Shown here: positions 11,381 through 32,700 of the stretch, piece by piece
Position numbering within the stretch: position 1 is the stretch's first letter
How the letters are laid out: each line of letters begins with the position of its first letter
Origin: Parcubacteria group bacterium
GTDB lineage: Bacteria; Patescibacteriota; Minisyncoccia; Moranbacterales; UBA9337
Assembly (NCBI GenBank): GCA_041662245.1
Contig: JBAZSW010000001.1
Location: 119,757 to 183,756 of the forward strand
Direction of reading: 5' to 3'
Length of the DNA: 64,000 nucleotides
Made by a program: the position numbers and the translations under genes
The notes under the pieces: model-generated
Told to the model about the DNA's origin: nothing
Seen by the model: only the letters and a program-made list of their open reading frames with translations
Databases searched by the model: none

Positions 11381-13168
11381 ATGCATCAAACTTTTTACAT
11401 TGATGTTGATGAAGAAGTAAATTCTGTCATTGGCAGAATTAGAAAATCAAATGCTAAATACAACATTTTAGTTGTTGCGCAAGGGGCTTTATTGATGCAA
11501 AGTTCAGTTAGTTTAAAATTGATAAAAAAAGAATCAGATATTTTAGATAAAAAAGTAATGATTGTGACCAAGGATGATAGAGCGGCTATTATTGCAAAAA
11601 AGATAGGTTTCCCAGTTAGAAGAAGTTTAGATGAAGTAAAGGAAATAAGCGCTAATCCTGTTTTAAAAAAACCAGACATCCAAATTGGTCGGGAAGCGGT
11701 TAATGAAAACAAAGTTAATGCAAAACCAGATTCAGATGAAATTTCAAATAAAAGAAATAGGTTGACTAATTTGGGTGCAGATAGTTTTATTGCTACTAAT
11801 GGAATAATTAAAAAAAATAATCTGGTTGAAAATAATAGAAGTTCTTTTTTGAAAAATAATTTGGATGATAGTAATAGAGAAAAAGTTGTTGTTAAGAATA
11901 ATAATTTATTGGAATCTCAAAATGATGGTTTTAAAGATCTTTTTACTGAATTTCCTGAACCAATCGTTACAGAAAAAAAACAAAAAACGTCAAATAAAAA
12001 TATGCTGAAATTTCTTTGGTTTTTTGTTGCAATTATCATGTTGCTTATTTTAGGTATTGCTGCTTACTTTTTTTTACCTAGCGCGGAAATTTCAGTTTTC
12101 CCTTTAAAAAGAGATGAGAATATAAGTCTGAAATTAAATATTTCAGAAGATGATAATGTCGTTGACCCTCAAGGAAATACGATTAATTTAAGAGGAAAAA
12201 TAATTGAAGATGAAGGCATCTTGTCTTTAACGTTTGATGCTACGGGACAAAAAGGAGGATCAGACCAAAAAGCTAAAGGAACAATTACCATTTATAATGA
12301 ATTTAGTGAAACCAGTCAAGTCTTGGTGGCGACGACGCGTTTACTGAGTGATAATGATAAACTTTTCAGATTGTTAAATACGGTGACTGTTCCAGGAATG
12401 ACAATCGTAGACGGTAAAGTGGAACCCGGAAAAATAGAAGCTGAGATTATAGCGGATGAATCAGGAACTGATTTTAATATTAAAGAAGCAACCCTTGCTA
12501 TTCCTGGTTTTAAGGGAAGTGCTAAATATGATAAATTTTATGCTAAATTAACTCAGGAAACAAAAGGTGGGGGAAGCAGTGGTGGAGATTTAAAAATGGT
12601 TTCTCGAAGTGATATTGAGAGCGCTAAATTTAAAACGGAAAATCAGTTAAAGAATCAATTGAAGGATAGTATTAAAAATAAGTCAGGCGAAGAGAATATT
12701 TTATTAGATAACGCTTTAATTTACGAGGTAACAGATTTTTCAGTTTTTCCAGAAGAAAGTTCAGTGACCGAAAGTTTTGAATATCAGGTTAAAATAAAAG
12801 TTAAATCTATTGTATTTTCTTCTGGAGATTTGGATGAGAAGATAACCACTTTTATTAATAGCAGTGTTATTAAAAAAGAGGTCCCTCTAAAATTAATTTC
12901 TTTTAGTAAAAATTATGGCAATGCCGATATAAATTTTGCCAAAGGAACAATAAATATGGAAATTAACGTTAATGCAAAATTACGTTCTCAAATTGATGCA
13001 GACAAGATTTCTAACAGTTTAGCTGGAAAAAGTAGGGATGAAATGAGCGGAATAATAAGCAATTATCCTCAAATAAGTAAAGCTGAGGCAATTATTTCTC
13101 CTAGTTTTATTTCAAACAGTTTCCCTAAATATCCTTCTAAAATAAAGGTTATAATTAGCGATAATTAA
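11381..13168 (+). CDS. Hypothetical membrane protein (595 aa): cytoplasmic N-domain, single TM, large extracytoplasmic domain
   Basis: TM helix FLWFFVAIIMLLILGIAAYFFL at roughly residue 210. No catalytic motif recognised. Confidence 0.45.
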   Translation: MHQTFYIDVDEEVNSVIGRIRKSNAKYNILVVAQGALLMQSSVSLKLIKKESDILDKKVMIVTKDDRAAIIAKKIGFPVRRSLDEVKEISANPVLKKPDIQIGREAVNENKVNAKPDSDEISNKRNRLTNLGADSFIATNGIIKKNNLVENNRSSFLKNNLDDSNREKVVVKNNNLLESQNDGFKDLFTEFPEPIVTEKKQKTSNKNMLKFLWFFVAIIMLLILGIAAYFFLPSAEISVFPLKRDENISLKLNISEDDNVVDPQGNTINLRGKIIEDEGILSLTFDATGQKGGSDQKAKGTITIYNEFSETSQVLVATTRLLSDNDKLFRLLNTVTVPGMTIVDGKVEPGKIEAEIIADESGTDFNIKEATLAIPGFKGSAKYDKFYAKLTQETKGGGSSGGDLKMVSRSDIESAKFKTENQLKNQLKDSIKNKSGEENILLDNALIYEVTDFSVFPEESSVTESFEYQVKIKVKSIVFSSGDLDEKITTFINSSVIKKEVPLKLISFSKNYGNADINFAKGTINMEINVNAKLRSQIDADKISNSLAGKSRDEMSGIISNYPQISKAEAIISPSFISNSFPKYPSKIKVIISDN

Positions 13169-17193: not shown

Positions 17194-17758
17194 GAACACA
17201 ATCTTTTGTATAATTAATTTATATGAAAGATACAAGAAAATACACTGATCGTTCTGAATATTTAAAACAAGCTGTATCTAAAAGAAGAAAGAAAATAAGA
17301 GATATAGCAATTGAATATAAGGGCGATAAATGTTTTATCTGTGGTTATGACAAATGCAAAAATGCATTAGAATTTCATCATACCGACCCAGTGAAAAAAG
17401 AATTTGGATTATCTAAATCAGGATTAACTCGTAGCTGGGAACGTGTAAAAAATGAAATTGAGAAGTGTGTTTTAGTTTGTGCTAATTGCCATAGAGAATT
17501 ACATGACAAAAACGCAGCCCTCAGTAGAAATACTAAGGTGAAAATAAGGTGAATTGCTGGAAGTCTAAAATCTTTTTTCAGTGTAAAGATTACGATAATC
17601 AGCAGCCGAGCCCCGACGTGACGTCGAGGAAGGTTCAGAGACTATCCCTTCGGGGAGTACTTTCTCTTTAATTAGAGATGGGAAGCGCCTTATCTCATAA
17701 TCTTTTGTAAGAAATGAGAATGATATAGTCCACCCTTTTTGGAAACAAGAAGATAAGT
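17194..17758 (+). mobile_element. Group I self-splicing intron with HNH homing endonuclease ORF (ORF in P1 loop, catalytic core 17553-17758)
   Basis: Canonical group I core elements are present. R element GGTTCAGAGACTA is at 17631-17643. S element GATATAGTCC is at 17721-17730, forming P7 with AGACTA. The 5' exon ends in U and the intron ends with an omega-G. The HNH ORF is embedded upstream of the core. Confidence 0.75.
17223..17552 (+). CDS. HNH homing endonuclease (intron-encoded)
   Basis: Zinc-binding pairs CFICGYDKC and CANCHRELH. HNH motif EFHHTDP...N...H. The ORF lies inside the tRNA intron. Confidence 0.75.
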   Translation: MKDTRKYTDRSEYLKQAVSKRRKKIRDIAIEYKGDKCFICGYDKCKNALEFHHTDPVKKEFGLSKSGLTRSWERVKNEIEKCVLVCANCHRELHDKNAALSRNTKVKIR

Positions 17759-17792
17759 GTAACCAATTGGTCGGGGGTTCGAATCCCTCTCG

Positions 17793-18085
17793 CGGAGCAA
17801 ATTAAGAAAGATACCTGCAAAGGTATCTTTTTTAATTTGCTCCGCGAAGAAAGTGAATGGTTTCACTTTTGTGAGGGTTCGAAAGTCGGAGTGTTGTGTG
17901 AGTTTTTCTGTTTAGGCAGAAAAGGCAAACACCACGAGACGGGGTCGCGAAATTTTTACGTCAGGAAAAATATTTGTGACAGAATCCCTCTCGCGGAGCT
18001 GCGAAAAACTCAAAAAAGACTACCTTATCAGGATAATCTTTTTTTGTTTTGTATTTTTCCTAGGACCGTCCTAGAAATAGGTAGA
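17793..18085 (+). repeat. Direct repeat 1 (~290 bp) of island; begins at tRNA 3' end and contains a second copy of the tRNA 3' end (GAATCCCTCTCGCGGAGC at 17984-18001)
   Basis: Near-identical (~93%) to 22911-23203. It contains a terminator hairpin and an internal 18-nt duplicate of the tRNA T-loop/acceptor 3' strand. The ORF-track ORF 17837-18115 inside it is judged spurious. Confidence 0.8.
17807..17836 (+). terminator. Rho-independent terminator after tRNA 3' exon (inside direct repeat 1)
   Basis: Stem AAAGATACC / GGTATCTTT with loop TGCAAA, followed by a T-run. An identical hairpin lies in direct repeat 2 at 22921-22950. Confidence 0.6.
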
Positions 18086-18782
18086 AGTATGTATCTATTT
18101 ATGCTAAAATCATAACATATGAGCAGAAGAGAAAAAATAATTATAGGAGAGTATTATCATATTTTTAATCGTGGAGTGGAGAAGAGAAAAATATTTAATA
18201 ATAAAAATGATTATTTTCGTTTTTGCAATTCGATGATTTTTTTGAATACGGAAAAACCTTCTAAAATGTCTTTTGACAAATTTGATGATAATGAACGTCC
18301 TTCTGACAATGAGATGTTAGTAGATATTGTTGCGTACTGCTTAAATTCAAATCACTTTCATTGCATTTTAAAAGAGAAACGGGAAAATGGAATTGCGACT
18401 TTTATAAAAAAAGTTTGTACAAGTCATGCTATGTATTTTAATAAAAAATATGAAAGATCAGGAGTATTGTTTCAGGGAAGATTTAAATCGGTACATATAG
18501 ATTCAAATGATTTACTGTTGTATTTATCTGCCTATGTTAATTGCAATAGTCAGGTTCACAAAATAGAGGATGCTGAAAAATATCCTTGGTGTAGTTTTCC
18601 TGAGTATTTAGGCGGGCTTGGAATTGGATGTCAAAAGTCTATCATTCTCGATCAATTTAAAAGTTCAATTGATTATAAAACATTTTGTTTAGAAAAAGTT
18701 GATGGAATGATAAGTAGGAAGGATAATGAAAAATTATGTTTTGAATAGTCATAATTTCTAGGACCGTCCTAGCTAGTTAGTG
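18060..18782 (+). mobile_element. RayT/IS200-like HUH-Y1 transposase gene flanked by identical 15-bp perfect palindromes CTAGGACCGTCCTAG (REP/REPtron-like unit)
   Basis: Palindromes at 18060-18074 and 18768-18782 bracket the ORF at 18119-18748. A third copy lies at 23839-23853 and a degenerate copy in direct repeat 2 near 23176. Confidence 0.6.
18119..18748 (+). CDS. REP-associated tyrosine transposase RayT / IS200-like Y1 HUH transposase (COG1943-like)
   Basis: N-terminal YYHIFNRGVEKRKIFNNKNDYFRF matches the COG1943 pattern (YHV.NRGN.RQ.IF...D..F). HUH motif NHFHCIL. FQGRFKS. Catalytic Tyr region LYLSAYVNCN. Confidence 0.65.
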   Translation: MSRREKIIIGEYYHIFNRGVEKRKIFNNKNDYFRFCNSMIFLNTEKPSKMSFDKFDDNERPSDNEMLVDIVAYCLNSNHFHCILKEKRENGIATFIKKVCTSHAMYFNKKYERSGVLFQGRFKSVHIDSNDLLLYLSAYVNCNSQVHKIEDAEKYPWCSFPEYLGGLGIGCQKSIILDQFKSSIDYKTFCLEKVDGMISRKDNEKLCFE

Positions 18783-18784
18783 AA

Positions 18785-19336
18785 ATGGTTAAGCTGGGTG
18801 ATATTTGTGATATATATATTGGCGGGACACCATCAAGGAAAATTGGTAAATATTGGGGCGGAAAAAATCTCTGGGTTAAAATAAAAGATATGAAGAAGAA
18901 TGCTTCTTCTATAATGGATACGGAGGAAAAGATAACAGATGAGGGTATCAATAAGTCCAGCGTTAAGCTTCTCAAAAAAGGAACTTTATTGTTTAGTTTT
19001 AAATTAACAATAGGAAAGGTTGTTATTGCAGGAAGAGATCTCTATACAAACGAAGCTATCGCTGGTATAGTTCCGAAGGACGGTAAGGTTTTAATGAAAT
19101 ATTTATATTACATATTGCCTAGGTTAGATTATTTATCTTATTGTCAACGAGCAACGAAAGGTATGACTTTAAACAAAGAAATCTTAAATAGCCTGAGTAT
19201 ACCATTGCCTTCTGTTGCAGAACAAGAAAAAATAATAAAAAAGCTTGATGAAATAGAATTGAGAAAATATAAATATTTAGAGAATTTAAAAAATGCCACC
19301 GCTGAGCAAGATAGAGAAATTTTAAATATCTTGTAG
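18785..19336 (+). CDS. Type I restriction-modification specificity subunit HsdS-like, single target-recognition domain (orphan)
   Basis: LGDICDIYIGGTPSRK start. TRD core with NEAIAGIVP. C-terminal conserved region SIPLPSVAEQEKIIKKLDEIE (PLPPLAEQ-type). Only 183 aa. No hsdM/hsdR in the window. Confidence 0.65.
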   Translation: MVKLGDICDIYIGGTPSRKIGKYWGGKNLWVKIKDMKKNASSIMDTEEKITDEGINKSSVKLLKKGTLLFSFKLTIGKVVIAGRDLYTNEAIAGIVPKDGKVLMKYLYYILPRLDYLSYCQRATKGMTLNKEILNSLSIPLPSVAEQEKIIKKLDEIELRKYKYLENLKNATAEQDREILNIL

Positions 19337-19373: not shown

Positions 19374-20045
19374 ATGAAAAAAAGAAATAAATCAAAAACA
19401 AATATGAAAAAAAAATCATTAATCACGCATAGTCAACATTTTGTTCTTACAAATGATAAAATAATTCGTACCGCTCTTAAAGAAAAATTAGAGGAGTCTT
19501 ATTTTGGAATAAAAAATACTAAGATTATTGAAGAATTAGGCATTACTCATGGGGAGGCTCGTATTGACATAGCTGTTGTTAACGGTGTTATACATGGCTA
19601 TGAACTAAAGAGTGACAGGGACACATTAAAACGGTTGCCTGGTCAGATTGAAATATATAACACAGTTCTTGATAAGGTAACACTAGTGGTGGGAATGAAT
19701 CATTTGCATGAAGCGATGAAAATCGTTCCAGATTGGTGGGGTATAACAATTGCAAAAATAGTAAATTCAGATAGCGTAGTTTCTTTTTTTAATATTCGAG
19801 AACCAGAAGAAAATAAAAATCAAAACAGCGCTGCTGTTGCTGCACTGTTATGGAGAGAAGAAGCTCTCAAAATATTGGAGAATATAGGACAAGCCAAGGG
19901 GATGCAATCAAAAAGTAGAAAGGCTATATATGAAAAATTGGCTGATGTTTTAGAAAAAAAATCTTTAAATAAAATCGTTCGGGAACAGCTACGTACTAGG
20001 GTAAATTGGCGATCTGATTTGCAGTGCATACCAAGTGGTGGTTAA
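19374..20045 (+). CDS. PD-(D/E)xK-fold nuclease-like protein (sce7726-family-like)
   Basis: Motif GEARIDIAVVNGVIHGYELKSDRD (D ... E-x-K). Convergent with, and overlapping, a 372-aa partner gene. The family assignment comes from memory of family descriptions, not a search. The true start may be the second Met (MKKKSL, ~19404). Confidence 0.4.
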   Translation: MKKRNKSKTNMKKKSLITHSQHFVLTNDKIIRTALKEKLEESYFGIKNTKIIEELGITHGEARIDIAVVNGVIHGYELKSDRDTLKRLPGQIEIYNTVLDKVTLVVGMNHLHEAMKIVPDWWGITIAKIVNSDSVVSFFNIREPEENKNQNSAAVAALLWREEALKILENIGQAKGMQSKSRKAIYEKLADVLEKKSLNKIVREQLRTRVNWRSDLQCIPSGG

Positions 20046-21114
20046 TACCTGCTGTTAGCCATGTTTCAGTGCTTCCAGTGCCTTTAATTTCTGGGTTTAG
20101 TTGGTATTTTTCAAAATGTTTCCCCTTATCAAATATATACTTGTCGCCAATGCTAAAATTTTCTCCCATAAAAAGATCTACATCCTCTGATAGTAGTTTT
20201 GCATTGGCTAAATAGAGTTCATACTTTTGTTTTTTACCTTTCATGATTAGCCAATTACTTTCCAGTGTATATTTTATACTAGTGGTGGGAGGAAAGAATT
20301 GAAAAGATTCTTTGTATATTGGATGCTGAATTGTGTAATCTGCAAATATCGGATTTCTTTGCAGGGTTTTTGCGCTAACATAACCAAGCCAACCTATCCA
20401 ATCATGACGAGGAAGATAATTTTCTTCATCAAGTTTGCACTTGGATAAATCTAGGGGAAAAGCGCCACCTGCAAAAATAAATGATCTCCATTTTGATAGG
20501 TTGTGAATTTGCTGACTCTTAGTTATATATGTTTGATATTTGCCATCATTTTCTTCGACACTTTTAATATCTACTAATAGGTCAATATTCTTTTCTTCTA
20601 GATTGTAAGAAGTTAAAAAATCATTAATTTTTTTATTCAGCACATCTATGTCAGAGAAATCAGAACAAACTATTCGCAAGCACAAACCGTTGTTGTGTTT
20701 TTTTGCTAATAATCCGACGATATTTTTAATCTGAAGATCATCGTTAATGTTTATCACTGGAATCAAAACCATCCCGTTGGCACCTCCTTTTGTTAGTATT
20801 TTTTCAAAGCATGTTATTTTCAATGACGTGGTGTATAGGAGACTAAAATCAATAAATATTGGATCTTTTCCCCAAAACTTCAAAATTTCTTCTGAAATTT
20901 CAGGTATTTTTTCACTAAACGTTGCTATGACTTTATTAAATTTTTCCTCTTGAGTTTGTTCCGATGCTTCTTTTGTGCTTGATTTTGGCTTTGGCATTAC
21001 GAACTGAATTAGTGGAGTAATATATCTTTTACTTTCATCATTTAAAGCCTCTAGGGCTTTTTGCTCAGCACGTTTCCATTTTAATATTGGCACATAATGT
21101 TTTGCTTCAAACAT
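19996..21114 (-). CDS. Hypothetical 372-aa protein, possible Beta-protein (PF14350)/sce7725-family-like partner of the PD-(D/E)xK protein
   Basis: N-terminus MFEAKHYVPILKWKRAEQKALEAL resembles the YVPILK.K.GE..AL start I recall for Beta_protein/sce7725 families. Its 3' end overlaps the convergent gene at 19374-20045 by about 50 nt. This is an inference only. Confidence 0.3.
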   Translation of the reverse strand: MFEAKHYVPILKWKRAEQKALEALNDESKRYITPLIQFVMPKPKSSTKEASEQTQEEKFNKVIATFSEKIPEISEEILKFWGKDPIFIDFSLLYTTSLKITCFEKILTKGGANGMVLIPVININDDLQIKNIVGLLAKKHNNGLCLRIVCSDFSDIDVLNKKINDFLTSYNLEEKNIDLLVDIKSVEENDGKYQTYITKSQQIHNLSKWRSFIFAGGAFPLDLSKCKLDEENYLPRHDWIGWLGYVSAKTLQRNPIFADYTIQHPIYKESFQFFPPTTSIKYTLESNWLIMKGKKQKYELYLANAKLLSEDVDLFMGENFSIGDKYIFDKGKHFEKYQLNPEIKGTGSTETWLTAGINHHLVCTANQIANLP

Positions 21115-21115
21115 A

Positions 21116-22321
21116 CTAGTTAGTCCATTTTTCCTCAGGAAAATATTCTTTAACTTTTGCCTGATTTATAATGTTATTTAAATAAATATAATTACCTCCA
21201 GCGCGTCGCATTTTACCAGCAACGATAGCTATGTGTATTCCCAATTCCCTTGCTAGACTTTTTGCTGCCATAGAGTTAGGCATCAAACTAGCTGGGCTTA
21301 CCTCCCATCTACCCTCAGGAACGAGAGCTTCCGATGCTAATTTATCAGCTTCATCTTCCGTGATATTAATATCAGTATTATCTAAATCGTCATAGAAAAA
21401 ATCAGATCCTTGGTTGTAGTGAAGCGCAATATGTGCAAGTTCATGCATTAGGGTAAACCAAAAGTTATCAAGACGATTATGTCGGATTGTTAGTCCGATA
21501 ATAGGTTTATTTTTGTTTGTTAGAATTGTTGCACCATCCAGGTATGTTTGAGTGAAGTGAGGTTCTATTATTAAAATAATCCCATATTTTTTTAAAAAAT
21601 TACGAGCAGCAACAGGTCCATTTTCTCTTATGCTTAATTTTGCCAATTCTTGCATAAAGGTTAAATTTATTAACTCCGACTTAAATGGGGAAACATTTTT
21701 TATTTTGCTTGCTTTTCTTACTACAATAGTAGACCAAACAACGAGAGCATGTTTATCCATAGGTCGTGTGGATCTGTAGTTGGTTTTACGAAGCATTCCG
21801 GATAGGCATGCTGGGGAGCCCACAGGAGCAAAAAAATTTTCCATCACGGTTTTTATATCAGATATTGTAGATAATTTTTCTAAATATCCTCGCCTTATCA
21901 TTTCCTTTAATGGGAAACGGTTCCAGACAATATTTTCTGTATTTCTGAATTCGTCAGCTTCTTTTAATAGGACTTTTGCAGGAATACCTAATCCGGCTTC
22001 AAGAGCTCTTATCATTGAAAGAGTTAATTGTCTTTTGCGAGAGAGAATTTCTGAGACCTTGCTTCTGCTTCCGATATAAGGTACTAAATCTGATGGTTTT
22101 AAATTCTGTTGTTCCATTCTAAATAAGATCGCATCAATTGGATCTGGCAAAGACTCCGGAATTATTTTTGATTCATAATCCTTTATTAGTGTTATTAGGA
22201 GACTTAGTTTTTCACCATTCTCTGAGTTAGGATCGGGATTTTTGTCCATTAAATTCTCGACTAACTTTATAGCCTCTTGATAATCTTCTTCAGTTTTTAT
22301 AACCTTGATTTTAGTTGTCAT
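21116..22321 (-). CDS. HTH (XRE-like) + ImmA/IrrE-family zinc metallopeptidase fusion; HigA-type antitoxin partner of HigB
   Basis: HEXXH motif in MHELAHIALH with downstream FYDD (COG2856-like). N-terminal helix-turn-helix region. It lies 15 nt downstream of the HigB-like gene on the same strand. Confidence 0.65.
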   Translation of the reverse strand: MTTKIKVIKTEEDYQEAIKLVENLMDKNPDPNSENGEKLSLLITLIKDYESKIIPESLPDPIDAILFRMEQQNLKPSDLVPYIGSRSKVSEILSRKRQLTLSMIRALEAGLGIPAKVLLKEADEFRNTENIVWNRFPLKEMIRRGYLEKLSTISDIKTVMENFFAPVGSPACLSGMLRKTNYRSTRPMDKHALVVWSTIVVRKASKIKNVSPFKSELINLTFMQELAKLSIRENGPVAARNFLKKYGIILIIEPHFTQTYLDGATILTNKNKPIIGLTIRHNRLDNFWFTLMHELAHIALHYNQGSDFFYDDLDNTDINITEDEADKLASEALVPEGRWEVSPASLMPNSMAAKSLARELGIHIAIVAGKMRRAGGNYIYLNNIINQAKVKEYFPEEKWTN

Positions 22322-22336
22322 AGTATTTTCTGGTTA

Positions 22337-22615
22337 TTACCAGCTCATATATTCATTATGTGTGCCGGCATTCATTATTAGGACCGCTTCGTATGGGTAG
22401 TTGATCTTAGTTTTTAGTCTGTATTTAACTCCTTTTAAATTAAATATCACAGTATTGTCTGCTAAAAAACTCGCACTAGCATAGCGCTGCTTGATATCTT
22501 GTGGCGTGCACCACCTTGCCATTGCTACTTCGGCTTCCCAAGCGTCTACCTGTGAACGGACATCAGCGTGCTTTTGCTTGAAAGTATGTAATTTTTCTTT
22601 ACCAAGGATATTCAT
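22337..22615 (-). CDS. higB: HigB-family type II toxin (RelE/ParE superfamily)
   Basis: MNILGKEKLHTFKQKHADVRSQVDAWEAEVAMARWCTPQDIKQRYASASFLADNTVIFNLKGVKYRLKTKINY matches the HigB pattern (KHPDAR..L.AWY.EV..A.W..P.D.K..Y.SAS...DN.VVFNI.GNKYRL). The ORF-track start 22642 is 9 codons upstream. The internal Met at 22615 fits HigB homolog length. Confidence 0.75.
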   Translation of the reverse strand: MNILGKEKLHTFKQKHADVRSQVDAWEAEVAMARWCTPQDIKQRYASASFLADNTVIFNLKGVKYRLKTKINYPYEAVLIMNAGTHNEYMSW

Positions 22616-22634
22616 TATTATTGACTGTATAATT

Positions 22635-22651
22635 GTTCCCATTATGGGAAC
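22635..22651. promoter_or_regulatory. Perfect inverted repeat GTTCCCAT-T-ATGGGAAC immediately upstream of higB; candidate HigA operator
   Basis: 8-bp arms of perfect dyad symmetry about 20 bp upstream of the proposed higB start. Confidence 0.4.
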
Positions 22652-22910
22652 ATAATATCATGTGACGAATGAGTTGTCAAGATATGAAAAAATAGGTCTT
22701 TATTGAGCTTTTTTGTTAGCTTTCAAATTTTGTGCATAGTCGCTTCAACTTTCCCGTATTAGGCAAATCCGTTACGTTTTCTTGATTGTTTGATAAGTGG
22801 GCAAATAAGAGTTAATTGGGCTACTCGAGATTAATTAACCTAATCTGTCACTGTGGCAGTTTGTTACTTCTTGTTTCTTGAAACAGGTTCGAACTTCGTC
22901 CAAGATTCGG

Positions 22911-23203
22911 AGCAAATTAAGAAAGATACCTGCAAAGGTATCTTTTTTAATTTTCTCCGCGAAGAAAGTGAATGGTTTCACTTTTGTGAGGGTTCGAAAG
23001 TTGGAGTGTTGTGTGAGTTTTTCTGTTTAAACAGAAAAGGCGAACACCACGAGACGGGGTCGCGAAATTTTTACGTCAGGAAAAATATTTGTGACCAAAT
23101 CTCTCTCGCGGAGCTGCGAAAAACTCAAAAAAGACTACCTTATCAGGATAGTCTTTTTTCGTCTCATTTATTTAAGGACCGTCTTAGTCGATTAGTTTTT
23201 TAA
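22911..23203 (+). repeat. Direct repeat 2 of island (copy of 17793-18085, ~93% identical)
   Basis: Shares the start GGAGCAAATTAAGAAAGATACCTGCAAAGGTATCTTTTTTAATT and the internal CTCGCGGAGCTGCGAAAAACTCAAAAAAGACTACCTTATCAGGATA block. The ORF 22853-23203 predicted inside it is judged spurious. Confidence 0.8.
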
Positions 23204-23403: not shown

Positions 23404-23820
23404 GTGATTATGACGAAGGAAAAAAAGAAATTTCAACAACTAACGTCAGAAAACATTTGCAACATATACAAGCTTCTCTATAAAGAGGGGCTTGTTTCTT
23501 TTCCGGTAGAAGAATGTGTTACCAATAAGATTGAAGCCCTTATTTCAAGTGTAAATAGTGTTTATTTTGGAAAAGATATATATCCATCTCATGGAGAAAA
23601 AGCAGTAGCACATCTTTATTTTATTATAAAAGATCATATATTTGTTGATGGAAACAAGCGGACAGCTTGTCTTTCTTTTTCTGTTTTGTGCGAATTAAAT
23701 GATTTGAATCCGAAATATAAGAATTTTACATTAGATGAGTTAGCTGTTCTTCTGGAGGATTATAAAGGGAAAAATCACCAAGTATTGATTAAGGAAGTTG
23801 CCAAACTTTTATTTAATTAA
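23404..23820 (+). CDS. doc: Doc (death-on-curing) family toxin, Fic fold
   Basis: Doc/Fic motif HIFVDGNKRTA (H.F.DGNKRT). The likely ATG start is at 23410 (the track start is a GTG). Confidence 0.7.
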   Translation: MIMTKEKKKFQQLTSENICNIYKLLYKEGLVSFPVEECVTNKIEALISSVNSVYFGKDIYPSHGEKAVAHLYFIIKDHIFVDGNKRTACLSFSVLCELNDLNPKYKNFTLDELAVLLEDYKGKNHQVLIKEVAKLLFN

Positions 23821-23838: not shown

Positions 23839-23853
23839 CTAGGACCGTCCTAG
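23839..23853. repeat. Third copy of 15-bp palindrome CTAGGACCGTCCTAG (REP-like)
   Basis: Identical to copies at 18060-18074 and 18768-18782. It shares the extended flank AATTTCTAGGACCGTCCTAGCTA with copy 2. Confidence 0.7.
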
Positions 23854-25727: not shown

Positions 25728-28700
25728 TTAATTAATAAGTTTTAAAGTGGTTCGTTCTTCAGTGTAATTTCCTGCTTTATCATAAGCTCTTATAATTAAG
25801 ATATAAACACCGTTGGGAATATCTTTAGGAGCTATGTAAAAATCTTTATTTTGTTGCCACCAATTATTTTGAACTTGACCCTGATTATTCAAAAGCCTGA
25901 TTCTATAATGACTGAGATTATCATCAGTTGCATCAAAAGTAACCTTATCTGATCGTTTTTTGGTGAGGATTGGTGGAAAAGGTTGGTTAAAAATCGGTTT
26001 TTTGGTATCTATTTTAAGTTTAGCTTTATTAGTAGAAATAAGATTATCGTTTTTGTCATAGCGTTTAATTTTTATTAATCCAGAAAAATTTTCTTTGAAC
26101 TTTAGAATTTTGCTCCATGTGCCACTGGTACCGACTTTAATAGTTTTCCAAAGTTTAGATTTTTTGTAAATTTTAATTGTTCCATTTACTAAAGTATCTT
26201 TAGTACCTTTTATTTTTATGTTCTTTTTCCAAGCATAGATAGTTTTTTTAAATTGGATATTTTTTTTATTAATTTCAATCTTGATGACTCCTATAATATT
26301 TTTGGGGTTGATATTGAAATTAATTATATAATCATTGGTATTCGCATGTCCAATGCCGTCATCACATCGGATATAATAAGCATAAGTGTTCCCATCCGTT
26401 AGATTATTGATGAGAACTGAATGAGTAGTTTCTCCAGTAACAGTAAAAATGTTTGGCATATCAGCATATGCAATGTTTGGAATAGTAGCATATTTACATG
26501 TGGCATTTTTGTCGGTAGTAACGGAAAGATTAATTTCTGTAATATTCTTGTCTAAATCTTCGCTGGGAGAACCATCGGAAATAACCGGCGGGTTAGTTAC
26601 GCAATCAACTGTCACATTATTTATATTAGAGTTAGTAATTGTGCCATTGCCATTGGTCACAGTGCATGTTTGGCCAGTTGGTTGTGTTAGAACAGTAATT
26701 ATATAATTATTACTACTATAAAGAGCTGTAGCAAAGATAAAAGAACCATTAGCAGTAAGCGTTAAATCGTCTTCACTATTATTTTGCAGGGTGACACTCT
26801 CACTAAGTCCAGAGATAACTCCACCGATGGTATAAACTGGGATAGTAATGATAGTGCTAGCATTGACGCTAGCAGAAATATTAGTGGCCATATCGCGAGT
26901 AAAAGCATAAAGAGTTTTGGATCCCTCAGTAGAAAAAGTGTAGCTAACTGGAATAGTTGTAGACCAAGTACAATTGTTGGAATTATTAATTTCACTGAGA
27001 CAATATCCTGTTATGGCAATATTGTCGGTGGCAATAAATGAATCAACTGGAACAGTAAAAGAAGTGACATTTGCAGGTAAAATAAAACTACTAATATTTG
27101 GTGAGGAAGAGTCCTTTATAATAGTATCGGTTATGTCGTTACCCCAATTGTCAGCGGAGTCTTTTAGAGAAGCCGTTAAAGTTAATAGACCATCATTTAA
27201 AGAAGATAAGTCTATAGTAGCTATTTTATCGCTTGAAGTAGCAATAATTCCAGTTCCTGTGACAGCCGAAGTCGTACTATTTGTATCATCAATAGAATAA
27301 TTATAGGTTGTTCCTACTTCCGCGCTAGTGAAAGAGAAAGAGGCGACTGTTGTATTTCCAACGTTAATATATTGAGTATCAAAATTAATGGAATATCCAT
27401 TTGGAGCTATTATGTCTATTACATCAGTGACTGTTACCGAGGCAGAATTTCTTACAGCCACAACGTTGGTGGTTTCATTATTGGCTGATGCTTGGGAAAT
27501 ACTATCAATGACAATCTCTGAATCTGTCGCTATAGAAATAGCATGAAAAATAAAAGTGGCAACGACCGAGTCTGTTGTTATATATTTAGTGGGATTATTG
27601 GTGCAAACTCCAACAATAATAGAAGCTGTTCCATTTATATTATCTATGGAGGCTTCCTCTAATACTACGGACAACTCCGGATCTGTTGAGCATCCTGACG
27701 TCTCTATAGTATCAATGCTACTTAAACTAAATTTGGACGAATCAAAAGTCACATGCAACTCTACCGCTGCCACTTCGTTGGATCCCGGATCAATTTTTGC
27801 AGTTATTATAATGTCGCTTCCTATATCTACTGTGCCTATTGATGGATCAAGGTATAATATACCATCTGCGCAATTAACTATGATATTGGAAACATTGGCA
27901 CTAGAAACTGTACCAGAGCCATTGGTCACTGCACAAATTTGTCCGTCTGGTTGATCATAAACAGTAACATTGTATGAGCTTCCATCATGTAAAGCTGTAA
28001 CAAAATCAAAAGAATCATCAGCAGTAAGCGTTAGATTATCTCCCCCGTTATTTTGTAAGATAACACTGCCATCAAGACCAGAAAGAGTTCCACCAATGGT
28101 GTAGGTTAAAAGAGTAATAATAACTGAATCATTAAAGTTAGTAGAAATATTATTGGATTCATCACGTGCGAAAGCATAGAGAATTTTGTTGCCTTCCGAA
28201 GAAAAAAGGTGGCTAGATGGAATAGTGGCACTCCAAGTGCAAGTATCTGAGTCGTTGGTTTCGCTGATGCAATATTCAGTAACAGCTACATCGTCTGAAG
28301 CTGCAAAAGTGATGGGGGAAACATTAAGGGAATTGGAGGTAGCAGGAATAACGAAATTAGTTATAACGGGAGGAGTAGTGTCAGGGATAGTTGGATAATA
28401 TTCGTCTGCTCCAATATCCCAAGTGTTATCTGGACGACTGTCTCCATCTATATCATTTGAAAAAGAAATATTGCTATCATCACTTAAGTCGGCCCCCTTA
28501 TCAATTGCATCATTGTCAGTTGAAATTAAATGCAATTTTTCAATACCAGCAGTGGTATTTACAAAAGTCAAAGTTTTGTTTCTATAATAAGTATTGAAAG
28601 CGGGGGCAGTGGCGTCTTTAGAAAGATTATTAGTTGAAGTGGCAACGAAAGTTCCTGAATAATCAATGGCATTATTGTATGAAATATTATTTTTAATTAA

Positions 28701-29720
28701 TGTGTGAGTATTTCCAGTAAGAATTCCTATATTATTGCCGTAGATAGTATTATTATATACTGATGCATTATTTGCTCCCGGAGTAGAATAAATTCCATAG
28801 CTAGTTGTTTCGTTAAATCCATAAATAATATTATTCCATATTTTTAGATTTGTTCTAACCGTATTGCAGCGAATGCCGTAGATGTTAGTATTGTAAGCAC
28901 TAGAAACGTATTTAATAATATTATTTTCTATACTTACATTTGATGCCGCAATATTAACAACTACGTCACCGTTATTTTGCGGAGATAAAGAAATTTGCAA
29001 GCCGGAAATTTTAACATTATTGATATTAATAACGAGGGCGGAATTTAGATTACAAGCTAACCGATATTTTGTTGTATCCCATTTCCCTACCGCTCTTTGT
29101 GAATAGTTACTTTCTGTTAGGGTATTATTGGGTGTATAAATCTTTATATAGTGCGTACTATCGGTCGTGTAGCCATTGACAGTAGTTGCAGTTGTATCTG
29201 CAGAAGAATCATAATAGCATGGAATGTTTAGAATATATCCGTTGCCACTTGTTAAATCGCTTGTCCCAAGAAGAATCGATGCGCTTGCGATAGCAGAGTT
29301 AAGAGAAGTGTAAGTATGTTTAATGGAAGTGACACTTGCGGAGCTGACATCAGCTGGTGTCATACCAGTTGCTGTTATGACATTCCAAACACTGGTAGAG
29401 GTTTTGGATGCAATGTAATAAAGAATCGAATCAGCTGAAATAACATCTCCTACGCCGATATTTCCGGTTTGAGCAAAATTGAAAGTAGCTACACCAGAAG
29501 AAATTGATACTGTACAATTTCCGCCAACTGAACAAGTCTGGGCACTGTCATTAATAGAGAGATCAGCTGTTGACTGCCCAACACTATAGTAAACATTGGA
29601 AGTGGCCGATGCAAAAGAAGCGAAAGAGAGTCCGATAAAAAAGAATAACAAAATTATGATTAGTTTGAAATATTTGATCATAGCTAAGTTTTTTTTAATA
29701 TTCCAATCGTTGATAGTCAA
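25728..29720 (-). CDS. Giant secreted/cell-surface protein (1330 aa) with right-handed beta-helix (pectate-lyase-like NN.IYGN repeats) and duplicated Ig-like modules
   Basis: N-terminal signal/TM. Repeated N-rich turns NNIIKYVSS, NNIIYGFN, NNTIYGNNIG, NNISYNN. Two copies each of module TPPVITNFVIPATSNSLNV...CISETNDSDTCTWSATIP and module YTIGGTLSGLDGSVILQNNGGDNLTLTADDSFDFVTAL. Confidence 0.6.
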   Translation of the reverse strand: MTINDWNIKKNLAMIKYFKLIIILLFFFIGLSFASFASATSNVYYSVGQSTADLSINDSAQTCSVGGNCTVSISSGVATFNFAQTGNIGVGDVISADSILYYIASKTSTSVWNVITATGMTPADVSSASVTSIKHTYTSLNSAIASASILLGTSDLTSGNGYILNIPCYYDSSADTTATTVNGYTTDSTHYIKIYTPNNTLTESNYSQRAVGKWDTTKYRLACNLNSALVININNVKISGLQISLSPQNNGDVVVNIAASNVSIENNIIKYVSSAYNTNIYGIRCNTVRTNLKIWNNIIYGFNETTSYGIYSTPGANNASVYNNTIYGNNIGILTGNTHTLIKNNISYNNAIDYSGTFVATSTNNLSKDATAPAFNTYYRNKTLTFVNTTAGIEKLHLISTDNDAIDKGADLSDDSNISFSNDIDGDSRPDNTWDIGADEYYPTIPDTTPPVITNFVIPATSNSLNVSPITFAASDDVAVTEYCISETNDSDTCTWSATIPSSHLFSSEGNKILYAFARDESNNISTNFNDSVIITLLTYTIGGTLSGLDGSVILQNNGGDNLTLTADDSFDFVTALHDGSSYNVTVYDQPDGQICAVTNGSGTVSSANVSNIIVNCADGILYLDPSIGTVDIGSDIIITAKIDPGSNEVAAVELHVTFDSSKFSLSSIDTIETSGCSTDPELSVVLEEASIDNINGTASIIVGVCTNNPTKYITTDSVVATFIFHAISIATDSEIVIDSISQASANNETTNVVAVRNSASVTVTDVIDIIAPNGYSINFDTQYINVGNTTVASFSFTSAEVGTTYNYSIDDTNSTTSAVTGTGIIATSSDKIATIDLSSLNDGLLTLTASLKDSADNWGNDITDTIIKDSSSPNISSFILPANVTSFTVPVDSFIATDNIAITGYCLSEINNSNNCTWSTTIPVSYTFSTEGSKTLYAFTRDMATNISASVNASTIITIPVYTIGGVISGLSESVTLQNNSEDDLTLTANGSFIFATALYSSNNYIITVLTQPTGQTCTVTNGNGTITNSNINNVTVDCVTNPPVISDGSPSEDLDKNITEINLSVTTDKNATCKYATIPNIAYADMPNIFTVTGETTHSVLINNLTDGNTYAYYIRCDDGIGHANTNDYIINFNINPKNIIGVIKIEINKKNIQFKKTIYAWKKNIKIKGTKDTLVNGTIKIYKKSKLWKTIKVGTSGTWSKILKFKENFSGLIKIKRYDKNDNLISTNKAKLKIDTKKPIFNQPFPPILTKKRSDKVTFDATDDNLSHYRIRLLNNQGQVQNNWWQQNKDFYIAPKDIPNGVYILIIRAYDKAGNYTEERTTLKLIN

Positions 29721-29774: not shown

Positions 29775-32700
29775 TTATTGGCCGAAATTTTGTATAAAAA
29801 GTAATACATCTGAAAGATTGACCGTATTGTCTGAATTTAAATCTCCAGCAATCCCAGTACCAGTCTTTCCGAAATTACCTACAAATATCGCATAATCATA
29901 AATATTAGTTTTGCCATCCCCATTGAGATCACTTGAGGGTGTAATGGGTGAAATTGCTGGCCAGGCTGGCCAATTAGACCAATCACTGGCATTTTCTGCG
30001 CCAGTTGTTCCTCCGTTGCGTTCAATAGTTACTGCTCCACCCGTGCTATCAAATTCAAGAACTCCATTGGCAGTTGTTGAGACAGTAGAAGAATTGCCAG
30101 CCACTGTAACTGTGTAAGTCCCTTCTTGCAAGCCGGTAATAATATGATGAGAGTTATTATTGTCAGCGTATGATAGGGAATATCCAAGACCAGCAACGTC
30201 AGTAAAGATAACCACTGTTGGTTTAGTTGAATCATCAATGTAAGCACCTACGCAGTTTGTTCCTACAATTGTAGATGTATCTGGCATCGTGTCGCTAGTA
30301 CTGGTTGGATATAAAACATTAAGAATATTATCTTTGTTGTTTCCTATATTAGGTCTTACTTCGAACCTCCAGCCACTAGGAATATCATTTGGTTGTTGAG
30401 ACATGGGTCGAATAAAATTATAATTTCCTCGTCCTTCTACCCAAGCTTGATAACCGTTTCCTCCAATTCTTCGAACCTTATAGTCACTGATTGGTAACAA
30501 AATTTTATCGTAAATTCTGGCAGTTCCTTGATCAGCATAAAGCTCAGATGTATCTGATGAGGTGCTAATTCCTTCATCGAGAGTTCCCTCATCTAAGGAC
30601 CATGTTCCATCTGTAGATTGAGGTTGACCAGTAACTACAGGAGGATCAATTAATTTATTATAGGTTCCGGTATGTAACAACCAAGATTTCTGATCATTTC
30701 CATTGATAGCATCCATGCGGTCGTAAACTAATAAATATTTATCATTTAACCATAGATAATCTCTTTTGTAGGAATTTAGTCTTTGAGCAATATTATTATT
30801 TGGTGAGTAGGTGGACCAAGCTGGATAGCAATCATATGCTTTATGAAGATCCATTGAAGCAAAAAGATAATTGTCTTTAGAGTCATCATATGCCAATAAC
30901 TCTCCTCTTGTTAGTTGTTTGCCAATATTTCGAACATCATTCACTGCCTCATATCCAGAAAAGGCTTTAGCATTAGCTCGACCCATGCTGCTAGTGGGTG
31001 GATCAGCTGTTGTAAAATTAAATCTTTGACCCCCGTCGTTCACTGGTCCACCTGATTGATTAACATATTGTCCCTCCGGAAAATTAGGCCATGTTCCACC
31101 ATCTGGGTCTAAAATTAGCATATTATTTCGAGAAACTGTTCTTGTTGTCCATGAAAAATTATAAAGACTTCCTTCGGAATTACCATAATCATAATATGCA
31201 GAAACATTCGCTAGTGGATGGCCGTTTTTCCAAATATAAAAGGATCCTGATTCAAGCGCATTATGAAAATTCCATTCAAAATCAGGAGCAAACATGTGAA
31301 CAACAGTATCATTATTTGTCCAACCAGTACGTGCAACAATGTCTGGTCCCATTTTCTTATATTTTGGAGCGGTGTTTAGCGGTAGATTGGTGACAGTTGG
31401 ATCATACCAAAGCAATTGATAGATTAAAAGTTGATTATTTGGATATCTTAAATAATTTGACCAAGTTGGATTGCCACTCCCATCCACAGTATATTGGCTA
31501 TCAATCCATGATTTAAACCATCCATTTTTATAGTGACCTTCCAGCATGGCCATGGACGACATTTCCAAAGACATTATATTATAATAATTTGCCTCTCCAC
31601 GCGGAATAACTAAATTATCAGGGGTGGTCATATACATAATCCAATAACCGCTTGTTTCAAACTGATGGAGTAACTTATCATCAGCAAACTCGTCAACAGC
31701 TCCATTGGTAGCAGTATTCCATGCTGATGCATAACGACAAAGATGTTGTAGAGGACGACGAGCATACGTTCTAGTTTCAAAAGCCAACGCTCCATCTTCT
31801 ACATCAAGAGAAGATTTAAAATTAAAATATCCCTTTTGCCCCGTGTAACCATCTTGAGCTATTCCTTCAGCCCAGTCCAATAGTTCAACTGCTCTCGGAT
31901 TATCTCCGTAGGTAGCCAAAGCTGCAACTGCAATGCCTGTCCAAGACTGAGTACCATAATTTTGCATATCAGTTAAAACTTCCATATCATTTTTCACACC
32001 ATCTGCATTTGAATTTATGCGATCTATTAAATTTTGTCTCTCAATGGGAGTTAAGCGATCATAAAAATAATCGTATGCTAGAGCATAAGTTTCCATTCCT
32101 ACAGCAGCATATCCAGTGTTTGGAGAATTTTGAGCTGTGATGGCATTGGCTAATTTATTATTAACTTGAGCCATTGCCATATCTGCCCATTGATCACCAT
32201 CTCCAGACAAATATCGAAATGCGCAAAGAGTAACATAATCACGAATATCTTCTATGCTGGAAATATTAGCAGATGCGGAATAAACATTTGCGTAAAGAGC
32301 GTTATATGTATTAGGCATTTGCGTCGTAGCTTTTGTTTTGAGAGCAGTGATATTGTCTGGCGTCATATGAATACGTGGGTGTGTATTTACGATGGGTTGA
32401 AAAGATGGTTTATCTACTGTTAAAATTACTGGAAAACTTTGTTGATAACCGCCTGAACCATTATTCGTATAAAAAGTTACTTTTTCGGATCCGTGCCACG
32501 ATGGATTTTGGGAAAATGAAACAATATGTGTATTTGAATTTATATCAACAACAATATTTGGATGATCATCATTAGAAATAGTAAAAGTCATTCCAGAACT
32601 ATTTGAAAAATAGTCATCCAAATCAAAAGCATTTGTTTTATTATTTCCCTCATTCCATCTTTGATTGGGAATAGATATATAATTAACAACCTTTAAGATA

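Follow-up and report, generated by a model that had tools for sequence, protein, structure and literature searches.

A PD-λ-2-type operon convergent with an sce7726-family nuclease gene in a Parcubacteria genome: a putative four-gene anti-phage module

PD-λ-2 and Gop-β-cII, whose mechanisms are not understood, are catalogued as separate anti-phage systems without any relation to each other. PD-λ-2 has been described as an abortive infection (Abi) system in which the product of gene B is toxic when alone, that of gene A rescues the cell, which is the reverse of the roles in HigBA, and that of gene C, said to be 'related to a P4 phage antitoxin', is required for defence against λvir (PMC9519451). 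It has also been demonstrated that gop-β-cII protects against λ and P1, with Gop being toxic in the absence of β (PMC9122126), and that a phage accessory gene triggers gop-β-cII cell death (bioRxiv 10.1101/2023.04.06.535777). In the present work, a locus related to both systems was analysed in a stretch of 64,000 nucleotides (nt) from a Parcubacteria group bacterium (assembly GCA_041662245.1, contig JBAZSW010000001.1, forward-strand positions 119,757 to 183,756), the whole of which is referred to as the window. This locus comprises three genes of PD-λ-2 type, here named A, B and C, the last of which encodes a Beta-family protein, and a fourth gene for an sce7726-family nuclease, which converges on gene C. 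These four genes are interpreted as one anti-phage module, a reading to which a probability of roughly 0.6 is given. The features on which this reading is built are as follows, lengths of proteins being in amino acids (aa):

19374..20045, plus strand: nuclease gene, sce7726/P4-cII-family PD-(D/E)xK nuclease, 223 aa (alternative start at 19404, 213 aa), convergent to gene C
19996..21114, minus strand: gene C, Beta_protein family (P4 beta-like), predicted TIM barrel, 372 aa, with its ATG 1 nt after the gene B stop
21116..22321, minus strand: gene B, Xre-type helix-turn-helix (HTH) plus ImmA/IrrE (M78) metallopeptidase with HELAH, 401 aa (PADLOC, Pfam)
22337..22642, minus strand: gene A, HigB-like (RelE-fold) protein, 101 aa as the longest open reading frame (ORF), probably 92 aa from Met10 (22615) (Pfam, PADLOC)
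19996..20045, both strands: dual-coding segment read from the sequence, specifying both C-termini on opposite strands (Beta ending in NHHLVCTANQIANLP and stop, nuclease ending in RTRVNWRSDLQCIPSGG and stop)

Four conserved genes and their relatives

Genes A, B and C of the window correspond one by one, in order and in direction, to those of PD-λ-2 from Escherichia coli ECOR42 (Vassallo et al. 2022, PMC9519451). They occupy 19996-22642 of the minus strand, A and B being 15 nt apart and B and C 1 nt, and the operon measures 2647 nt compared with 2625 nt for the published system. What sets the window and 62 relatives apart is the fourth, convergent sce7726 gene, which an E. coli chromosomal locus of the prototype kind lacks. 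The latter, whose span of 2637 nt agrees with that of the ECOR42 system, was assigned to that kind because of its scores on the PD-Lambda-2 models (98 bits for A, 588 for B and 517 for C), and no sce7726 gene was found within 10 kb of it. This locus was missed when the proteins of plasmids and phages were searched; it was recovered when E. coli genomes were searched at the DNA level, for distant matches to a four-gene locus from a gammaproteobacterium, a 65-nt match in gene B leading to it, and was confirmed with PADLOC. Gene C of the window is a member of a distant subfamily, with 22% identity to the E. coli PD-λ-2 C protein. The E. coli system is a nuclease-less form, most simply through loss. 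At the E. coli prototype locus (L089, NZ_CP123310), the position convergent to Beta is taken, at 6798-8447 and beyond a gap of 264 nt, by a DUF6119-family gene rather than sce7726.

To place the window among its relatives, one genome per species was scanned with a Beta profile, which yielded 80 loci whose ORFs were called and then searched with four protein profiles. Gene B lies directly upstream of Beta in 63 of these, together with gene A wherever the contig allows, and a convergent sce7726 nuclease gene is present in every one of the 62 B-Beta loci whose contig extends past Beta. The 63 loci are distributed over more than 12 phyla, namely many lineages of Patescibacteria, Acidobacteriota, Bacteroidota, Ignavibacteriota, Planctomycetota, Nitrospirota, Omnitrophota, Chloroflexota, Desulfobacterota, Atribacterota, Armatimonadota, Gammaproteobacteria and others. 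In a comparison of pairwise distance matrices over 53 complete loci, the divergence of the four proteins proved to be correlated (r: A-B 0.75, B-C 0.70, B-nuclease 0.72, C-nuclease 0.59; Mantel p=0.001), and in one relative, with a Beta identity of 88%, these genes stand among different chromosomal neighbours. The constant presence of the nuclease, the co-divergence and the changed neighbours together argue that the four genes travel as a mobile unit, and it is very probable that they are inherited as one. The original prediction, which was made from the letters of the window, had seen a two-gene cassette here; this view has to be replaced, since PD-λ-2-type A and B genes adjoin the pair in an arrangement that is kept in 63 loci. 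No paper linking sce7726 to PD-λ-2 was found in the literature, and the definitions used by PADLOC and DefenseFinder would call such a locus a three-gene PD-Lambda-2 system plus an orphan 'cII', missing a conserved component.

In five loci (L016, L023, L044, L054 and L060) A, B or Beta is split into several ORFs next to an intact nuclease gene, which could be real decay or the result of frameshift errors in metagenome-assembled genomes (MAGs).

The identities of the four genes can be regarded as practically certain. Gene A reaches 70.7 bits on Pfam HigB_toxin and 126.3 bits on PADLOC PD-Lambda-2_A, and its start at Met10 is suggested by the beginning of the PADLOC match at residue 10 and by the length of its orthologue in a related locus, L170, which is called as 92 aa. 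Gene B matches PADLOC PD-Lambda-2_B over its full length (490 bits, residues 2-397) and Pfam Peptidase_M78 with 36.7 bits, its translation contains the HExxH motif as 'MHELAH', and its HTH received no separate Pfam report at E<=0.01. Gene A thus has a HigB_toxin domain as do the toxins of HigB-HigA and HigB/Xre-M78 pairs, while a canonical type II HigBA was rejected, the partner of gene A being a 401-aa HTH-M78 fusion and not a small HTH-only HigA. In this regard, the module had been described as adjoining HigBA and HsdS: both neighbours are present, but the supposed HigBA consists of A and B of the PD-λ-2-type operon and HsdS is an orphan half-gene.

Gene C scores 190.1 bits on Pfam Beta_protein (PF14350, threshold 27), residues 7-362 covering model positions 1-338 of 342, and gives 126.9 and 117.2 bits on PADLOC PD-Lambda-2_C over its full length; its predicted fold is a TIM barrel. 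From its N-terminus, KHYVPILKWKRAEQKALEAL, a likeness to the Beta_protein and sce7725 families had been proposed, of which the first holds and the second does not: no NCBIfam model, including sce7725_fam (NF033831), was matched even at E<=10, and membership of sce7725 was therefore rejected. The window thus differs from the sce7725/sce7726 pair in that its nuclease is a bona fide sce7726 member and the 372-aa partner is not sce7725, although the N-terminal Y-x-P-x-L-K-x-K-x-x-E found in Beta proteins is similar to the beginning of the sce7725 model, to which a Beta protein of Shiga toxin-producing E. coli also gives a marginal match (model positions 1-35, E=0.1). Among 30 homologues about 65 Beta positions are invariant, including K12, K14, E17, D89, R147, D182, K184, D259, H359 and H360, and the loop at 266-276 is strongly conserved despite low model confidence. 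Such high conservation with many invariant charged residues suggests, as judged from the alignment, that Beta has an enzymatic or specific binding activity and is not simply a passive plug. A sequence search for a solved structure returned only spurious matches to fatty-acid-binding proteins, and no mechanistic work on Beta proteins was found in the literature, where a match to 'beta family protein' proved to be the unrelated 2TM-β.

The 223-aa protein scores 180.2 bits on NCBIfam sce7726_fam (NF033832, cut-off 70), residues 27-209 covering model positions 2-182 of 184, and 101.6 bits on the PADLOC P4 cII model ('cll'). A D...ELK nuclease core of the PD-(D/E)xK fold and a kinship with sce7726 had been suggested for this protein, in which RIDIAVVNGVIHGYELKSDRD is indeed found, and both suggestions are borne out: the predicted fold is that of PD-(D/E)xK (restriction-endonuclease-like) proteins, and E54, D65 and E77-x-K79, which agree with it, are invariant among the homologues and kept in P4 cII. 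An identical sequence, encoded on a Parcubacteria MAG contig of 217 kb, already bears the NCBI name 'sce7726 family protein'. The nuclease may start at Met11 (19404), as the NCBI annotation has the 213-aa version and the first ~25 residues are not conserved. A sequence search found no solved structure for the nuclease, and the sce7726 family is of modest size, with 2675 clusters (50% identity, E<=1e-10) among 1.84 billion representatives. Taken together, the strong family matches, the homologues (hundreds for the two proteins, at 55-88% identity) and the confident structure models (pLDDT 83.6 for the 223-aa and 88.4 for the 372-aa protein) indicate that both ORFs are real genes and not chance ORFs.

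A Beta-family protein and a convergent sce7726-family protein are likewise found in Gop-β-cII of P4 (Ghisotti 1990, as cited in Rousset et al. 2022, PMC9122126). The relation of the window pair to P4, raised conditionally by the original prediction, is substantiated by several observations: P4 cII scores 151 bits on NF033832, retains E, D and ExK when aligned to the window nuclease and matches it directly (29.8% identity, E=9e-9); P4 beta belongs to the same Pfam family as the window Beta (hhalign, 306 columns, E=1.9e-4); and the pair is convergent. In both cases the place directly upstream of beta, on the same strand, is that of a toxic partner, which is Gop (133 aa) in P4 and HigB/HTH-M78 in the window. 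On the other hand, P4 has a 27-nt gap with an annotated terminator between beta and cII where the window has an overlap, P4 cII carries an 80-aa C-terminal extension compared with the window nuclease, and the window Beta matches the PADLOC 'beta' model with its N-terminus only (24 bits). None of six window proteins scanned matches the PADLOC gop model, on which P4 Gop scores 232 bits.

The two halves of the four-gene unit also occur apart. A and B without Beta are found on plasmids of Paraburkholderia, Acinetobacter and Limnohabitans, as two-gene units of the same kind as in the window and with ~41% identity to its gene B. Beta converging on sce7726, with neither A nor B, is found in 16 genomic loci (Bacillota, Myxococcota, Alphaproteobacteria and Gastranaerophilales), and the pair also occurs on Rhodococcus and E. 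coli plasmids and in the E. coli prophage Rac-SA53, Mx4, Gordonia phages and Mycofy1; a search of viral contigs with the nuclease profile gave 80 loci, 79 of them with Beta and sce7726 and none with A or B. These stand-alone cassettes share with the window the convergent orientation and an overlap in the same register (32-110 nt, 3k+2), but they lack HigB/HTH-M78, their identity to the window proteins is 24-32% for Beta and 36-46% for the nuclease, and in 58 of 94 loci no same-strand ORF of at least 50 aa lies within 250 nt upstream of Beta. Rhizobiaceae plasmids show a further combination, in which a hypothetical protein, a B-like protein and Beta converge on sce7726. We infer that Beta and sce7726 are an ancestral, portable core to which interchangeable toxic modules are attached upstream. 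As the present locus and its relatives make apparent, PD-λ-2 and Gop-β-cII have in common this core, a Beta TIM-barrel protein and an sce7726 nuclease with a dual-coding overlap, and differ in the attached module, HigB/HTH-M78 or Gop.

Two further observations concern relatives of the pair on mobile elements. In seven viral loci (L092-L097, IMG/VR prophage contigs) a 234-aa CI/LexA-like repressor, with HTH and S24 peptidase-like sequence, is encoded 51 nt upstream of Beta on the same strand, which puts the two-gene cassette in the prophage immunity region. In the Acinetobacter pittii plasmid pNDM-AP_882 (L088, NZ_CP014478), where a B-like gene and Beta converge on sce7726, a blaNDM-1 transposon region flanked by copies of an IS30-family insertion sequence (IS) is inserted in the Beta gene, leaving pieces at 1587-1808 and 11872-12789, ~10 kb apart; the Beta gene is split by the blaNDM-1 region in the same way in two other Acinetobacter NDM plasmids.

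The shared 3' end of the Beta and nuclease genes

According to both the ORF table and the sequence, the 223-aa ORF (19374-20045, plus strand) and the 372-aa ORF (19996-21114, minus strand) are convergent, and the segment common to them, 19996-20045, is exactly 50 nt long and includes both stop codons. A convergent pair with an overlap of ~50 nt had thus been described correctly, but its characterization as atypical turned out to be the opposite of the case, as overlap is the norm for this pair. In a census of 83 loci (the window, 77 genomic loci, 4 plasmid loci and P4), 82 show a stop-to-stop overlap of between 32 and 110 nt, which measures 50 nt in 47 of them and has a length of 3k+2 wherever it occurs, the sole gap being that of P4. 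In viral contigs, many of which are near-duplicates, 75 of 79 pairs overlap, 73 of these with a length of 3k+2. The shared DNA specifies conserved C-terminal motifs of both proteins, N-H-H...Q-x-A-N in Beta and R-x-x-W-R in the nuclease, and the layout points to one ancient, homologous dual-coding segment. Given these motifs, dual-coding constraint and common descent suffice to explain both the persistence of the overlap and its fixed register, which probably keeps the two core genes inseparable.

Two elements that may govern transcription of the operon were located in the window:

22652..22680, minus strand: sigma-70-like promoter candidate for A-B-C by consensus match (TTGACA, 17-nt spacer, TATTAT, TG extension)
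19824..19838, minus strand: candidate intrinsic terminator for A-B-C, inside the nuclease coding region, ~160-175 nt past the C stop

The promoter candidate is the best consensus match in the region (11/12), where the total of such matches equals the expectation from shuffled sequence, and the sequence upstream of gene A is 79% identical to the equivalent stretch in locus L170. The terminator candidate, where a hairpin of -15.1 kcal/mol is followed by a T-run, is weakly supported, as few related loci have a comparable site. Within 300 nt of the stop, terminator-like sites were found on either side in 17 of 78 loci, a weak enrichment over the opposite-strand control with its 3-4 of 78, and in ~78% of loci the 300 nt next to each stop contain no recognisable intrinsic terminator. 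As the only candidate in the window lies ~175 nt inside the nuclease gene, its transcripts should overlap by more than 50 nt, and the convergent transcripts may interfere with each other.

An extension of this idea, in which the 3' overlap is a regulatory device and pairing or collision of the transcripts exerts reciprocal control over the nuclease on one side and A-B-C on the other, is rather unlikely. The retention of the overlap in 82/83 genomic and plasmid loci and 75/79 viral loci and the scarcity of terminators speak in its favour. However, P4 and a few viral loci are gapped, P4 even having a terminator between the genes, which means that the overlap is not obligatory, and dual coding of conserved C-terminal motifs and common descent can by themselves explain its persistence and its fixed 3k+2 register.

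Proposed function and competing explanations

An anti-phage role of the locus, suggested by analogy with the two characterized systems, is fairly probable, while the specific division of labour among its four genes, modelled on the E. coli PD-λ-2 and P4 gop-β-cII experiments, is tentative. In the uninfected cell, A would hold the toxic B in check and Beta would restrain its partners or be coupled to them. Upon infection, a phage product would be sensed through Beta as a hub, the toxicity would be released and the infected cell would be stopped, as in abortive infection. The nuclease, whose catalytic residues are intact by sequence, could provide DNA cleavage as a second or alternative effector. 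Beta, to which the sensing role is assigned here, is required for defence in E. coli, as C, and is the antidote to Gop in P4.

Several considerations weigh against the interpretation as a single defence module. This locus and every other four-gene form are known only from their gene sequences, and the host, represented by a MAG from the Parcubacteria, offers no phage system to work with. The window C protein reaches 127 bits where the prototype has 517, and at 22% identity the transfer of function is a long step. The prototype PD-λ-2 defends without a nuclease, which may hence be accessory or serve a separate function, and the papers found do not distinguish what cII contributes to the defence by P4 from the contributions of gop and beta. 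Moreover, correlated divergence is in part a consequence of simple physical linkage, and the enzyme-like conservation of Beta, unexpected for a passive antitoxin, is not explained by the proposed model.

Among the alternatives, one makes Beta and the nuclease a pair resembling a toxin-antitoxin (TA) system, with sce7726 as toxin and Beta as the protein that neutralises it or acts as sensor, while A and B would be no more than an additional regulator or a second trigger. The two-gene cassettes, which have no candidate effector other than the nuclease, the invariance of its catalytic residues and the description of P4 beta as an antidote to a toxic partner are compatible with this possibility. 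Nevertheless, the partner that beta neutralises in P4 is Gop and not cII, and the toxic component of E. coli PD-λ-2 is B, for whose neutralisation C is not needed; a TA-like pair is considered improbable.

Less credit is given to the picture drawn by the original prediction, in which two independent neighbours, a HigB/HTH-M78 TA pair and a separate Beta/sce7726 cassette, lie side by side. That each half exists without the other, A and B on the plasmids mentioned above and Beta with sce7726 in prophages, plasmids and Firmicutes, speaks for this picture. In the window, however, only 1 nt separates the stop of B from the start of C; the four-gene order recurs in 63 loci from many phyla, with the nuclease in 62/62 of those extending past Beta; the divergence of B parallels that of C (r 0.70) and that of the nuclease (r 0.72); and the Beta gene is genetically required for E. 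coli PD-λ-2 defence. A chance juxtaposition of TA pair and cassette was rejected on the grounds of conservation and co-divergence.

A more speculative proposal, considered quite doubtful, treats the gene layout itself as the infection sensor: convergent transcription of A-B-C and the nuclease gene would keep the nuclease low under normal host transcription, and a phage that shuts down or redirects host transcription would cause this antisense brake to fail, releasing the nuclease and the Beta-controlled toxins. In a second proposal of this kind, independent of the first, Beta proteins, with their TIM barrel and invariant K12/K14/E17/D89/R147/D182/K184/D259/H359/H360, would be enzymes, and their product or substrate would be the real signal that connects P4 gop-β-cII with PD-λ-2. 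Finally, a convergent layout is common for restriction-modification (R-M) systems, but an R-M-like pair, in which the TIM-barrel Beta would modify nucleic acid in the manner of the transglycosylases TGT and DpdA and the PD-(D/E)xK protein would cut unmodified DNA, is very improbable.

In terms of the four-gene module, the existence of four-gene forms, three-gene forms and stand-alone cassettes offers comparisons that could show what Beta senses and what the nuclease does. The advance is incremental, as all four families are already named in databases and the mechanism is a proposed one.

Surroundings of the module

The module is located in a small island, with the housekeeping genes PfkB, FtsA-like, DnaG and RpoD upstream, and a Fic/Doc gene, a gene for a multi-HTH protein and genes for giant surface proteins downstream. 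The island also holds genes for an HNH protein, a protein resembling IS200-type and repetitive extragenic palindromic (REP)-associated tyrosine transposases (RAYT; Y1), and the orphan half-HsdS. This last is a half-size type I HsdS of 183 aa with one Methylase_S domain (18785-19336, plus strand), 37 nt upstream of the nuclease gene; neither HsdM nor HsdR was found among the large ORFs of the window, and the half-HsdS could be what remains of a larger system or could share a transcript with the nuclease gene. The transposase-like protein (209 aa, 18119-18748, plus strand) shows weak similarity to IS200-like Y1/RAYT proteins, with 31.6 bits in Pfam and 23.6 bits, below the cut-off, in NCBIfam.

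A direct repeat of 266-282 nt with 93-94% identity, present only twice in the window (17793-18058 and 22908-23173), brackets 5.1 kb in which all four genes of the module lie together with the half-HsdS and the gene for the Y1 transposase-like protein. It has strong internal hairpins, such as 17790-17816 with 17821-17847, and was excluded as a tRNA, tmRNA or Rfam element for want of any such match; it may represent the borders of a mobile cassette or a repeated structured element. The near-palindrome CTAGGACCGTCCTAG, for which no copies are expected by chance, occurs three times in identical form within a conserved 28-nt motif (18060-18074, 18758-18772 and 23839-23853), one copy directly following the Y1/RAYT-like gene and another directly following the Fic/Doc gene, which suggests a REP-like element or a shared terminator.

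The Fic/Doc-family protein (138 aa, 23404-23820, plus strand), encoded just downstream of the island, and the small HNH protein (109 aa, 17223-17552, plus strand), encoded at its upstream edge, are further products of toxin or mobile-element type around the module. At a greater distance, two giant ORFs on the minus strand, 25728-29720 (1330 aa, no Pfam match) and 29775-34931 (1718 aa, Big_9 and dockerin-like traces), and upstream a homologue of the TrwB-like type IV coupling protein (6148-8634, plus strand) are surface or DNA-uptake-type genes typical of the candidate phyla radiation (CPR) and unrelated to the module.

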